Below, one piece after another: positions 8,439-44,296 of a stretch of DNA of 64,000 nt. Numbering within the stretch: the first letter of the stretch is position 1; the number at the start of each line of letters is the position of its first letter. The DNA comes from Escherichia phage 348Ecol098PP, in sequence record OR062947.1; one strand, given 5' to 3'. The notes below the pieces were generated by a model. It was not told the DNA's origin and did no database searches. It was given only the letters and a program-made list of their open reading frames with translations. The position numbers and the translations under genes are program-made.

Positions 8439-8954
8439 ATGAATATTTGTTTAGGCAGTACAATTCCTAAGGGTTACGTAATTGATGTCACTACTTGGGA
8501 AAATGACGGCGACAACTATAAAACCAAAACATTATTTGGTGTAGAAGAGCATGAGCTCCAACAGTTTAAATATCTCTTGAAGAAATTTAAGAGTCGTCAT
8601 TCTAGCACTAAAGCTGAACGTTACTGTGGTAATACACCATTCAGTGATTGCTCGCTTTTAATCTATGAATACTTGGTTGAAGGACTGTTCTCAGACCAGC
8701 TTTATCCAGAATTCATTAAAAAGGTCTTTGGTATTGAAGTCGACCTTGGTGATAAATCTGAAGAAGACGAAGCCCGCGTATTCGACCTGTTCTTTGTGAA
8801 AGGCGATGAGGTATCTCAAGGACTTATTGATATTCTTGGCTATGCTTCTGAATACTACGACTATGATTTCTTGCGTGTAGTTGAACGTGTTGAATTCGCT
8901 TATATTGAAGAAGAAATTGTTTTGCCGACTGTTAAAATGATTGATTTGCTTTAA
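8439..8954 (+). CDS. hypothetical acidic protein
   Basis: 171-aa ORF. Confidence 0.6.
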   Translation: MNICLGSTIPKGYVIDVTTWENDGDNYKTKTLFGVEEHELQQFKYLLKKFKSRHSSTKAERYCGNTPFSDCSLLIYEYLVEGLFSDQLYPEFIKKVFGIEVDLGDKSEEDEARVFDLFFVKGDEVSQGLIDILGYASEYYDYDFLRVVERVEFAYIEEEIVLPTVKMIDLL

Positions 8955-9033
8955 GAATTATGTGTTATTATTAATTCATACCCTCTATTACCAAAGGTGC
9001 TCTAAAGTGCCTTTCATAATAGAAAGTTATTTA

Positions 9034-9107
9034 GGCCCTGTAGCTCAACGGTTAGCAGCAGTCCCCTCATAAGGGAAAGGTTACCAGTTCGAATCTGGTC
9101 TGGGTCA
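9034..9107 (+). tRNA. tRNA with CAU anticodon (Ile2 or Met)
   Basis: Hand-folded cloverleaf: acceptor GGCCCTG/CTGGGTC (one mismatch), D-loop with GG, anticodon loop CTCATAA, T-arm ACCAG-TTCGAAT-CTGGT; no encoded CCA. Confidence 0.6.
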
Positions 9108-9113
9108 TATATT

Positions 9114-9189
9114 CGAGGCATAGCTCAGAAGGAAGAGCAAGGACCTTCTAAGTCCTAGGTCGTAGGTTCGATCCCTACTGTCTCGACCA
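9114..9189 (+). tRNA. tRNA-Arg (anticodon UCU)
   Basis: Hand-folded: acceptor CGAGGCA/TGTCTCG, D-arm GCTC-AGAAGGAA-GAGC, anticodon loop CTTCTAA, T-arm GTAGG-TTCGATC-CCTAC, encoded CCA. Confidence 0.8.
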
Positions 9190-9207: not shown

Positions 9208-9552
9208 ATGAAAGGCAATATTTATCTGGTAGTTCATGATTTAACGTTTTATTTTAACGAATATGATACAGTTATTTCTCATCGATTGATTAATTCGCTG
9301 TATCAGCATGCCGATTACATTTATGTTCAAAATGAATTTGGACATTGGAAGTTCATTAAAAACCGTTCTGGGTTAACTAGTTTTGAATACTTTGATCGCA
9401 AAGACCTTTTAAACGAAATCCCATTGCAACATCGGTTCCAGAAACGCGAATCATTATATTATTGCCGTCATATACCAAACGCCGAATGTGTTAATGAAGC
9501 GATTAATCTATGGCGTCGGCGTCGAGAGCAAATTGATGATATGCCAAAATAA
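9208..9552 (+). CDS. hypothetical protein
   Basis: 114-aa ORF with SD GAGGA 7 nt before ATG. Confidence 0.6.
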   Translation: MKGNIYLVVHDLTFYFNEYDTVISHRLINSLYQHADYIYVQNEFGHWKFIKNRSGLTSFEYFDRKDLLNEIPLQHRFQKRESLYYCRHIPNAECVNEAINLWRRRREQIDDMPK

Positions 9553-9639
9553 GAAGCCGGGTCGCTACCGGTAAGTCGTCGGACTGATGTTCCCTGAGTA
9601 AGGACTGGTCTTAATAAATCTTTATGATTTGTTAATATC

Positions 9640-9815
9640 CCCTTACATCACAGCAGAAACGGCGCACAGAATTATCGATTCGAGGAAATATCTTTGCCGT
9701 AAGCCGAGTAGCGTTTTTGACGGAACGTTCGGATATGGTCGAGATATGGCCTTTTAAAAATATTGAGTAGCGTCAACTACTTAATAACCGGGTTCGAATC
9801 CCGGCGTTTCGTACA
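9640..9815 (+). ncRNA. possible small stable RNA with tRNA-like 3-prime T-arm
   Basis: Non-coding stretch with CCGGG-TTCGAAT-CCCGG T-arm-like hairpin at 9788-9804 but no canonical cloverleaf; terminator follows. Confidence 0.3.
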
Positions 9816-9854
9816 AACACTTACTTAGTAGGTGGAAACCCCGACAAGGTATAT

Positions 9855-9883
9855 AGCCCCTTCCGAAAGGTTGGGGCTTTTTT
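9855..9883 (+). terminator. rho-independent terminator
   Basis: agccccttccgaaaggttggggc hairpin followed by TTTTTT; same hairpin recurs at 25116. Confidence 0.7.
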
Positions 9884-9884
9884 G

Positions 9885-9892
9885 TATAAATA
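9885..9892 (+). promoter_or_regulatory. late promoter TATAAATA
   Basis: Exact TATAAATA about 35 nt upstream of CTS-protein gene 9928. Confidence 0.45.
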
Positions 9893-9927: not shown

Positions 9928-10554
9928 ATGTATACTTTTAATGAATTTTTAGCCGAAACGGAAGTAATCACCGAAGCCGGTGTACGTATGACAAAAGAGA
10001 AATGGCAAGCTGCTTACGATGCTATTTCTGGTACAAAAACTAGTACAGAGTTTTTCAAAAACGTTCAAGCCATGTACGGTATCGACACTTCCAGCCAAAA
10101 AGAATATTACAGAGCTTCTAAAGCATTCAAAGATATTGTTAGTGGTGGTGTTTCTGCTAAATCGGGTTCGCCTAAAGTAAAACCTGCTCCTACCATTCCT
10201 AAACCTGCGACCCCTAAAGCAATAGCAAAACCTGAGCCTAAGCCGGAAGTAAAAGCAACTCCTAAAGCTCCTGCTCTTAAGTTTGATACTTCTAGCCTGG
10301 AAAAAAAATATAAACAACTATCTTCGCTTGTTCGCGATATTGAATCCGATACATCTTCACTCGTTCGTGAATTCAATAGTCTTCGTAATGGCCAACATAT
10401 CAACAACCTTGATACCCCGGACCTTTATCGTCTTTATTTGACTATCGAAGGTTTGAAGTACACTCAACCACTTCACGACGCGATTAAAGAAAAACTTCGT
10501 CAGGCAGGTCGTTTGGCTGCTGACGCTGCTCAGTATGCAAAAACTCGTAAGTAA
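9928..10554 (+). CDS. internal-protein-like protein with CTS and Pro/Lys-rich linker
   Basis: Starts MYTFNEFLAE (CTS pattern); central PKxxP low-complexity segment. Confidence 0.7.
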   Translation: MYTFNEFLAETEVITEAGVRMTKEKWQAAYDAISGTKTSTEFFKNVQAMYGIDTSSQKEYYRASKAFKDIVSGGVSAKSGSPKVKPAPTIPKPATPKAIAKPEPKPEVKATPKAPALKFDTSSLEKKYKQLSSLVRDIESDTSSLVREFNSLRNGQHINNLDTPDLYRLYLTIEGLKYTQPLHDAIKEKLRQAGRLAADAAQYAKTRK

Positions 10555-43276: not shown

Positions 43277-44296
43277 ATGAAAATTTTGCACTTAGGCGAC
43301 TTCCATATCGGAGTCAAACAAGATGACCCATGGGTTCAAGATATTCAACGTGACGGTATTCGTCAAGCAATTGAATACTCTAAGAAACACGGGATTAAAA
43401 CTTGGATTCAGTACGGTGATTGGTTTGACGTCCGTAAAGCAATAACACATCGTACAATGGAATTCAATCGTGAAATCGTTGATATGATTTCTAAAGCAGG
43501 CATTCACGTTCATGTCACGATAGGAAACCATGACATGGCGTTTAAGAATACAATAACACCTAACACTGTTTCTGAATTGTTAACTCAATTTGAAAACTTT
43601 ACTATTTACGAGCATCCAACTACTGTAGATTTTGACGGATGTCTGATTGATATCGTTCCATGGATGTGTGAAGAAAATACAGGTGAAATCTTAGAGCACA
43701 TCAAGACTTCTTCTGCAGCGTATTGTGTTGGGCACTGGGAACTGAACGGCTTTTATTTCTATAAAGGAATGAAGTCTCATGGGCTTGAACCTGATTTCTT
43801 AAAGACCTATAAACAAGTCTGGTCCGGCCACTTCCACACAATCTCTGAAGCTGCTAACGTCAAATATATTGGGACACCATGGACCCTTACTGCAGGTGAT
43901 GAGAACGACCCGCGCGGATTCTGGGTATTTGACACTGATGTTGAACGTATGGAATTTATTCCTAATGAAACAACATGGCATCGACGAATCACTTATCCGT
44001 TTAAAGGCAAAATCAATTATTCTGATTATACTAATCTAGCAGTACGTGTTATAGTATCAGAAATTGATTCAGAGTTGACTAAGTTTGAATCTGAACTTGA
44101 AAAAGTAGTTCACTCTCTTCGTATGGTTTCTAAAGTTGATAACAGTGTTGAATCTGATGATGACCAGGAAATCGAGATTAAATCACTTCAAGATATCATT
44201 AAAGAATATATTGACGCGATTCCAGATATCTCAGACGAAGATAGAGAAGCGCTGGTCAAATATTCCAACGAACTTTATATTGAGGCAACACAATGA
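43277..44296 (+). CDS. 47: recombination endonuclease subunit gp47 (Mre11-like)
   Basis: 339 aa; phosphoesterase motifs LHLGDFH, GDWFD, GNHD. Confidence 0.9.
   Translation: MKILHLGDFHIGVKQDDPWVQDIQRDGIRQAIEYSKKHGIKTWIQYGDWFDVRKAITHRTMEFNREIVDMISKAGIHVHVTIGNHDMAFKNTITPNTVSELLTQFENFTIYEHPTTVDFDGCLIDIVPWMCEENTGEILEHIKTSSAAYCVGHWELNGFYFYKGMKSHGLEPDFLKTYKQVWSGHFHTISEAANVKYIGTPWTLTAGDENDPRGFWVFDTDVERMEFIPNETTWHRRITYPFKGKINYSDYTNLAVRVIVSEIDSELTKFESELEKVVHSLRMVSKVDNSVESDDDQEIEIKSLQDIIKEYIDAIPDISDEDREALVKYSNELYIEATQ

Follow-up and report, generated by a model that had tools for sequence, protein, structure and literature searches.

The question raised by this locus is what is encoded in about 300 nt of phage DNA that follow a tRNA cluster and carry no convincing ORF. 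The window, i.e., the whole 64,000-nt stretch of Escherichia phage 348Ecol098PP (OR062947.1) analyzed here, holds such an interval between the ORF at 9208–9552 and the terminator at 9855. A first-pass annotation, made from the letters of the sequence, had proposed that the interval encodes a small stable RNA, namely a counterpart of the two found in the tRNA cluster of T4, or else a decayed tRNA. The ORF and the T-arm-like hairpin on which this proposal drew are both present as described, and the ORFs that can be drawn within the interval are of small size, begin at TTG codons, and lack conservation. As judged by alignment, 9549–9815 is the homologue of T4 rnaD (species 2 RNA) followed by that of rnaC (species 1 RNA): the stretch is collinear with these two genes of T4, as the first of the two suggestions anticipated, and it encodes two RNAs instead of the single one that had been envisaged.

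T4 rnaC and rnaD have been known and sequenced since the 1970s, the element is already annotated in T4 GenBank records, and the result reported here is the rediscovery of a known element together with a testable structural model of a 50-year-old orphan RNA. The two RNAs are among the oldest orphan RNAs of molecular biology and have no Rfam family; their function was called unknown in publications ranging from 2010 to 2025 (PMC3014915, PMC9697503, PMC12685909), and our literature searches retrieved no functional study of either of them. In T4, rnaC has been seen by northern blot and accumulates stably as a species of ~140 nt, and both RNAs are classed as late (PMC9697503). What is new is the predicted fold of rnaC, with 26 compensatory pairs including a covarying loop–loop contact, and evidence that this RNA moves on its own as a cassette of constrained length, seen in seven genera or more of T4-like phages of enterobacteria. 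The structural model makes the question of rnaC function testable.

The source phage is T4-like, of the Mosigvirus type, with NHEP10, HX01, and JS09 as its best matches, and the region is matched by 802–806 phage records. Positions 9540–9850 of the window align collinearly with the rnaD–rnaC stretch of T4 NC_000866: over rnaC, 136 of 137 positions are identical to T4 rnaC (T4s001), and over rnaD (~9549–9668) 104 of the 122 aligned columns are identical to T4s002. Following the "species 1 RNA" annotation of X03016, rnaC was taken to start at C1 of the acceptor-like stem and to end with the discriminator U. The gene lies in the tRNA unit, 3′ of rnaD and 5′ of a conserved hairpin and the terminator, and the order rnaD–rnaC–hairpin at the end of the tRNA cluster is the same in T4 and in this phage. 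In addition, the records of T2L, Aplg8, and ATK48 annotate the region as rnaC and/or rnaD, and that of RB3 as rnaC. Rfam, which the first-pass annotation had named as a check, yielded no identification (release 15 gives no family match at the gathering score over 9549–9850, nor in the Marfavirus copy), and it was alignment that provided the collinearity with T4. The features of the locus are collected in Table 1.

Table 1. Features of the tRNA and stable-RNA unit, with positions in the window
Feature	Position	Strand	Basis or remark
Candidate middle promoter, MotA-box-like (TGCTTTA, 12 nt, TATTAT)	8947–8971	+	regular-expression match and published T4 layout
tRNA-Met (CAT)	9034–9107	+	ARAGORN; Rfam tRNA, 52.4 bits
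tRNA-Arg (TCT)	9114–9189	+	ARAGORN; Rfam tRNA, 66 bits
114-aa ORF, phrog_3355 (function unknown), between tRNA-Arg and rnaD	9208–9552	+	
rnaD (species 2 RNA) homologue, ~120 nt	9549–9668	+	ends placed by homology to T4
rnaD 5′ hairpin, 5-bp stem, invariant 7-nt loop GUCGCUA (9561–9567)	9556–9572	+	
rnaD long hairpin with closing helix GUCGUCG/CGGCG(C)AC	9575–9667	+	
rnaC (species 1 RNA) homologue, 137 nt	9676–9812	+	homology to T4, X03016 limits, covariation
rnaC acceptor-like stem, 5′ strand CGAUUCG, pairs with 9805–9811 (CGUUUCG)	9676–9682	+	covariation
rnaC long arm at the D-arm position, closing helix AGG/CCU (9683–9685 with 9750–9752)	9683–9752	+	
rnaC A-rich single-stranded linker UUUAAAAA, AAAAU nearly invariant	9753–9760	+	
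rnaC 10-bp arm, terminal loop L5 CGUCAA (9771–9776)	9761–9786	+	covariation
rnaC T arm CCGGG-UUCGAAU-CCCGG	9788–9804	+	covariation, motif scan
rnaC discriminator-like U, then ACA	9812–9815	+	
Conserved hairpin 3′ of rnaC	9818–9834	+	one pair A-U here, G-C in T4
Intrinsic terminator, AGCCCCUUCC-GAAA-GGUUGGGGCU + U6	9855–9883	+	fold, pattern match
T4 late-promoter consensus TATAAATA	9885–9892	+	directly after the terminator, ahead of ORF 9928–10554 (phrog_2280)

The surroundings of the two RNAs differ from those in T4 at a few points. In T4, tRNA-Arg is followed by rnaD and rnaC without an intervening ORF, the gap between tRNA-Arg and rnaD being about 1–2 nt, whereas here the 114-aa ORF lies between them, and its stop codon overlaps the site homologous to the 5′ end of T4 rnaD. 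With this ORF in between, 3′ processing of tRNA-Arg cannot generate the 5′ end of rnaD as it does in T4, and adjacency to tRNA-Arg is a feature of the T4 context and not of the RNA itself. A member of phrog_3355 is also found 3′ of a tRNA-Met in Karamvirus ECLOM01. Downstream of rnaC, the conserved hairpin, which we take to be an RNase III processing site, precedes a terminator hairpin (9855–9878, capped by a GAAA tetraloop, with a folding energy of −16.4 kcal/mol and a U tract reaching to 9883) for which the consensus terminator scan made no call, because its stem holds two U·U mismatches in tandem. The terminator lies closer to rnaC here than in T4, and the change from G-C to A-U in the conserved hairpin is a compensatory one. 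The neighboring ORFs have no Pfam match, and the PHROG families to which they belong are all of unknown function; moreover, a survey of the neighbor families and of 5,426 E. coli genomes found no partner protein, conserved neighbor gene, or host target.

Regarding the fold, rnaC was studied in 33 distinct copies from 43 loci, coming from Tequatro-, Mosig-, Karam-, Moon-, Winkler-, Kanagawa-, Gelderland-, and Marfavirus-type phages. The sequence in the window alone has a minimum free energy of −50.2 kcal/mol (z = −4.1), and RNAalifold, run on 14 copies, gives a fold identical to this single-sequence prediction. When 22 distinct copies were aligned, 98.7% of the cells were paired, with compensatory change at 26 of the 44 pairs; none of 500 shuffles reaches the observed pairing, and slid controls are 35–47% paired. 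Comparison of the copies shows that the predicted structure is a four-way junction whose parts follow the order of a cloverleaf: an acceptor-like stem, a 70-nt arm, a linker, a 10-bp arm, and a T arm.

The last of these parts had been recognized at the outset, since the CCGGG-TTCGAAT-CCCGG hairpin at 9788–9804 and the 7-nt strand CGTTTCG that follows it at 9805–9811 are those on which the first-pass annotation remarked. That reading did not mention the partner of the acceptor-like 3′ strand, CGATTCG at 9676–9682. The third pair of the resulting stem is either A-U or G-C, and the versions of the two strands are never mixed among the 33 distinct copies. The T arm has G-C or U-A as its middle pair throughout the 22-copy alignment, and A-U and U·G were seen by eye in two more copies. 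The long arm starts with the AGG/CCU helix, which is invariant, and continues through three further helices to a terminal loop, L3 (UUGACG, 9717–9722); compensatory change is found in 15 of the 16 pairs of its helices 3–5. As for the 10-bp arm, 8 of 9 stem pairs covary. Although the middle of the molecule is almost wholly rewritten in the Kanagawa- and Marfa-type copies, the length of rnaC stays within 136–140 nt.

Some further details of the alignment may be recorded here. The tandem U·U formed by 9679–9680 with 9807–9808 is invariant in 33 of 33 distinct copies, next to the covarying pair. The direct repeat GAGTAGCGT, found at 9706–9714 and 9765–9773, makes up the 5′ strands of both loop-bearing hairpins of rnaC. 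An alternative pairing can be drawn between the 5′ acceptor strand (GAUUCGA, 9677–9683) and the T loop (UCGAAUC, 9794–9800), and it is lost in the Winkler-type copies. The acceptor-like stem is followed by U-CCA in the Marfavirus-type copies and by U-ACA in the others; the Marfavirus-type loci (L135, L136, L141, L142, L144, L164, L258, and L368–L370) combine U-CCA with the G-C version of the loop–loop contact described next.

The two terminal loops of the body, L3 and L5, are perfectly complementary over 6 bp, and they are invariant in 25 distinct copies while the stems that carry them are rewritten. In these 25 copies the variable position of the contact is an A-U pair; in the other 8, which are all of the distinct Marfavirus-type copies, the loops read UUGGCG and CGCCAA, a matched change to G-C, so that pairing is preserved in 100% of the copies and no mixed copy occurs. 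This pattern points to a kissing-loop lock between L3 and L5. As the covariation amounts to one phylogenetic event, in the Marfavirus clade, the evidence is good, not overwhelming; it is further backed by the prior complementarity of the two 6-nt loops and by the tight conservation of rnaC length. Covariation reads the same for pairing within a molecule and between molecules, and geometry offers some guidance on this point. By our estimate, stacking of the 10-bp arm, the kiss (6 bp), and the inner stem (5 bp) makes the outward path; the chain then turns at a 4-nt bulge and comes back to the junction through ~16 bp and two internal loops. Since the two paths are similar in helical length, closure within one molecule is the simplest reading. 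Such a kiss would lock the body of rnaC as a rigid two-helix bundle.

With this fold at hand, the likeness of rnaC to a tRNA can be stated more precisely. The molecule has an acceptor stem of 7 bp that runs on into a T arm with a 5-bp stem and a 7-nt loop, followed by a discriminator, and it lacks the complete cloverleaf with D and anticodon arms that would score above threshold as a tRNA. Among tRNAs, class II offers the closest parallel, given the 7-bp acceptor stem, the 5-bp T stem with its UUCGAAU loop, the 3-bp helix at the D position, the long arm placed 1 nt before the T arm, and the discriminator followed by ACA or CCA; unlike a class II tRNA, rnaC has no anticodon arm, carries ~64 nt of helices in place of the D loop, holds a tandem U·U in its acceptor stem, and elicits no call from tRNA finders. 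It follows that the absence of canonical D and anticodon arms, as first described, is correct for the anticodon arm, whereas the D-arm position is occupied by a 3-bp helix with a long insertion. Similarly, the idea of a decayed tRNA is apt as far as rnaC is tRNA-derived in its acceptor stem, T arm, and discriminator, but the molecule is a conserved, structured one and no decaying relic. In the Winkler-type copies the T loop reads UGCAUCC or UGCAUGC, its canonical sequence being lost while the stem covaries, and strict mimicry of the tRNA elbow is thus not universal.

The combination of a tRNA top half with another body is familiar from other RNAs. The tRNA-like domain of tmRNA and the bacterial Y-RNA-like YrlA are stable non-coding RNAs in which a mimic of the tRNA top half is joined to a non-tRNA body, and both are matured by tRNA enzymes. 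This architecture is shared by rnaC. YrlA itself gives a sole match of 14.8 bits, which falls on the real tRNAs of the cluster and not on rnaC. A tmRNA was considered and rejected, for there is no ARAGORN tmRNA call, no tag ORF, and no G3·U70, pair 3:70 being A-U or G-C. At gathering thresholds, ARAGORN and Rfam report nothing at the locus beyond tRNA-Met and tRNA-Arg. For the T-loop motif GGTTCRANYCC, 0.27 matches are expected in the window and 3 are found, of which one belongs to tRNA-Arg. Another T-loop-like match, GGTTCAAGCCC, lies at 43781–43791 on the minus strand, far from the tRNA cluster, at a place where ARAGORN calls no tRNA. Readings of short motifs as CsrA-type GGA, ToxN-type AAAU, or SD-like GAGGA elements, or as codon or anticodon loops, were dropped as low-information coincidences.

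The distribution of the two genes adds to this picture. The genes for tRNA-Trp and tRNA-Gly flank rnaC directly on its two sides in Karam-, Moon-, and Gelderlandvirus, both lie just downstream of it in Winklervirus, and in Marfavirus it comes after tRNA-Met and a spacer. The molecule is kept in three different cluster contexts. In Dhakavirus (loci L137–L140, ~700–860), rnaC is cleanly absent and rnaD is joined to the homologue of the post-rnaC hairpin, which comes straight after it. Conversely, rnaD is absent from phages of the Karam-, Moon-, Winkler-, Kanagawa-, Gelderland-, and Marfavirus types (L003, L005, L367, L371). Judged by these occurrences, rnaC and rnaD are independent cassettes, each found without the other, and the varied positions of rnaC within the clusters, together with its clean absence in Dhakavirus, indicate that it behaves like a tRNA-gene cassette. 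When viral, metagenome, and genome collections were scanned with loose two-anchor patterns, most matches were due to chance; filtering with an nhmmer profile left T4-like phage contigs and nothing else, and none of the copies from these collections was bacterial. Moreover, a covariance model of rnaC, applied to 27 loci around relatives of the neighboring phrog_2290 protein, including distant contigs, detected no remote homologue. As far as these searches can see, the rnaC family does not extend beyond the T4-like phages that infect enterobacteria.

The companion RNA, rnaD, is built differently. Its predicted fold over 9553–9668 has a free energy of −37.4 kcal/mol (z = −3.3). The closing pair of the 5′ hairpin varies among A-U, G·U, and G-C, and in the long hairpin 96% of the cells are paired, with compensatory change at 6 pairs. 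Among 14 distinct copies, the 5′ ~60 nt and the 3′ ~30 nt are nearly invariant, and the middle has diverged from T4. T4 rnaD has the same fold, its 5′ hairpin, closing helix, and 3′ end being those that hardly change; the differences from the present phage are concentrated in the distal hairpin. The distal 45–50 nt occur as three unrelated sequence types between flanks conserved at 100% (L010, L012, and L137–L140). On this evidence, the distal hairpin resembles a module that can be swapped while the scaffold stays fixed. The RNA ends in ACAG here and in an encoded ACCA in T4, where ACCA is confined to T4 itself.

Two complementarities connect rnaD with rnaC. The sequence CGCUAC of the rnaD loop (9563–9568) is complementary to GUAGCG, which is present twice in the rnaC repeat; this may be due to chance or reflect a contact between the two RNAs. 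In addition, the 3′ end of rnaD, GAAACGGCG (9656–9664), is complementary at 8 of 9 positions to the 3′ strand of rnaC (9802–9810), a pairing that may be relevant in the precursor.

How the two RNAs would be made can be outlined from the T4 literature and from the anatomy of rnaC. In T4, a middle promoter lies just upstream of the tRNA cluster, and the cluster gives one ~1.75 kb primary transcript that runs from this promoter to an end after species I RNA and spans the tRNAs and both stable RNAs (PMC2330249). In the present phage, rnaD and rnaC would likewise be co-transcribed with tRNA-Met and tRNA-Arg up to the terminator, the middle-promoter-like site upstream of tRNA-Met being the likely promoter of the unit, and host tRNA-processing enzymes would excise them from the precursor. 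The acceptor-like stem stacked on the T arm would present RNase P with the "top half" of a tRNA; by analogy with tRNA precursors, a cut by this enzyme would set the 5′ end of rnaC at C9676, the 3′ end would fall at the discriminator U9812, and CCA repair could follow. Maturation through the tRNA-processing pathway is the most likely route for rnaC.

We consider it quite probable that the identity of the pair as rnaD and rnaC, maturation by the tRNA pathway, and a fold in cloverleaf order together account for the locus. The function that we favor is a tentative proposal, less likely than not: mature rnaC could be a trans-acting, non-decoding tRNA mimic whose top half binds a tRNA-binding protein. 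In such a scheme, rnaC would use tRNA maturation to gain stability, and its rigid body would present the top half to a partner, which might come from the host, as a processing or defense factor, or from the phage. Any benefit would be accessory and would depend on the host, in keeping with the convergent rnaD SNP selected on ECOR34 (PMC12685909). In favor of action in trans are the northern-blot detection of rnaC (PMC9697503) and its retention in three cluster contexts. Against a function of this kind, T4 mutants lacking the tRNA region grow on laboratory hosts. Beside it, rnaD would be an independent, rod-like RNA made of a conserved scaffold and an exchangeable distal hairpin.

A more specific version of this proposal, in which rnaC is a counter-defense RNA that titrates or blocks either an immune factor of the host that is directed at tRNAs or an enzyme of tRNA processing, appears rather unlikely at present. 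That a counter-defense role is conceivable follows from two reports, namely the use of phage tRNAs as counter-defense tools against PARIS (PMC11464382) and a convergent SNP that a T4-like phage acquired in rnaD while adapting to E. coli ECOR34 (PMC12685909). If true, this reading would explain both the gain and loss of the rnaC cassette in tRNA clusters and the host-specific selection on rnaD.

The trans-acting mimic has to be weighed against a role in cis, in which the tRNA-like fold directs an ordered series of cleavages or guards the 3′ end of the transcript, and the excised RNAs are by-products. The layout of T4-type clusters fits this well: both RNAs are found at the 3′ end, ahead of the conserved hairpin and the terminator, the primary transcript spans them together with the tRNAs (PMC2330249), and the near-complementarity of the rnaD 3′ end to the rnaC 3′ strand could time the cleavages. 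Other phages do not keep to this layout, and the presence of rnaC amid the tRNAs of the cluster in Karam-, Moon-, Gelderland-, and Winklervirus, i.e., its independence of context, argues against a purely cis-acting 3′-end element. Moreover, the invariant loops, the covarying kiss, and the strict length represent far more constraint than a cleavage signal requires, and the excised RNA accumulates stably (PMC9697503), all of which leave this explanation an unlikely one.

Another way of acting in trans would be by base pairing, with rnaC and rnaD serving as sRNAs that hit host or phage mRNAs through L3, L5, the A-rich linker, and the rnaD loop GUCGCUA. Short, invariant, single-stranded motifs are what such RNAs would display, the rnaD loop has its complement twice in rnaC, and the two molecules have been loosely termed regulatory RNAs in print (PMC9697503). 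Against this, the two best-conserved loops complement each other and covary, and no trans-acting sRNA has been characterized in T4 (PMC3014915). A blastn search with 9549–9850 against 5,426 E. coli genomes (E ≤ 10) detected neither similarity nor complementarity, at a sensitivity that short seeds would escape. We hold a base-pairing sRNA to be a decidedly unlikely identity.

The same two loops could instead join separate molecules. Prohead RNA of phi29 (pRNA), a phage-encoded RNA of 120–170 nt that is essential for packaging, has two loops whose complementarity, kept by covariation, is intermolecular, and rnaC resembles it in having two hairpin loops with complementarity kept by covariation. 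The comparison ends there, since the two RNAs have no homology in sequence or fold and rnaC is dispensable in some genera. Self-assembly of rnaC through L3 and L5 into dimers or rings, with a structural or late-assembly role, would agree with the perfect, covarying complementarity of the loops, with late expression (PMC9697503), and with the blindness of covariation to intra- versus intermolecular pairing. Nevertheless, the estimated helical lengths fit intramolecular closure, and Dhakavirus builds the same type of virion without rnaC. T4 packaging, for its part, works in vitro without RNA, which also counts against this reading. In sum, such a role is very improbable.

Less probable still is that the locus encodes an unusual but genuine tRNA of 91–94 nt, with the internal segment 9722–9728 as the 5′ strand of its acceptor stem. 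This segment, CGGAACG, can indeed pair with 9805–9811 in this phage and in T4, the records of phages 55 and G29 call a tRNA-Lys there, and, in E-value mode, the only Rfam match in the region is a weak one to tRNA-Sec (9720–9812, 17 bits, against a family threshold of 47). In the 22-copy alignment, by contrast, the internal stem has 84% of its cells paired, which is no better than in shuffles, and shows no compensatory change, while at the position covarying with the real 5′ strand the pair is broken in 13 of the 22 copies. The short tRNA with an internal acceptor strand was rejected on this covariation; in addition, neither ARAGORN nor Rfam makes a tRNA call, an anticodon stem is missing, and the anticodon-like CUUUUAA varies among the copies.

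The last alternative, that 9549–9850 harbors small protein-coding genes, has a negligible chance of being right: ORFs of 42 aa (9629–9757, plus strand) and 34 aa (9672–9776, minus strand) exist and several GenBank records place hypothetical proteins here, but such ORFs are short, start with TTG, shift in frame and length between phages, and in Karamvirus run through tRNA genes, substitutions keep base pairs and not codons, and the indels of 1–2 nt together with the lack of ORF conservation exclude coding.

The fold of rnaC also corrects a recurrent mis-annotation. In OQ599310, MK327940, NC_054920, and many other records, rnaC is entered as tRNA-Lys, as tRNA-OTHER, or as one or two "hypothetical protein" CDSs, and among the matches listed, few records label the region rnaC or rnaD.
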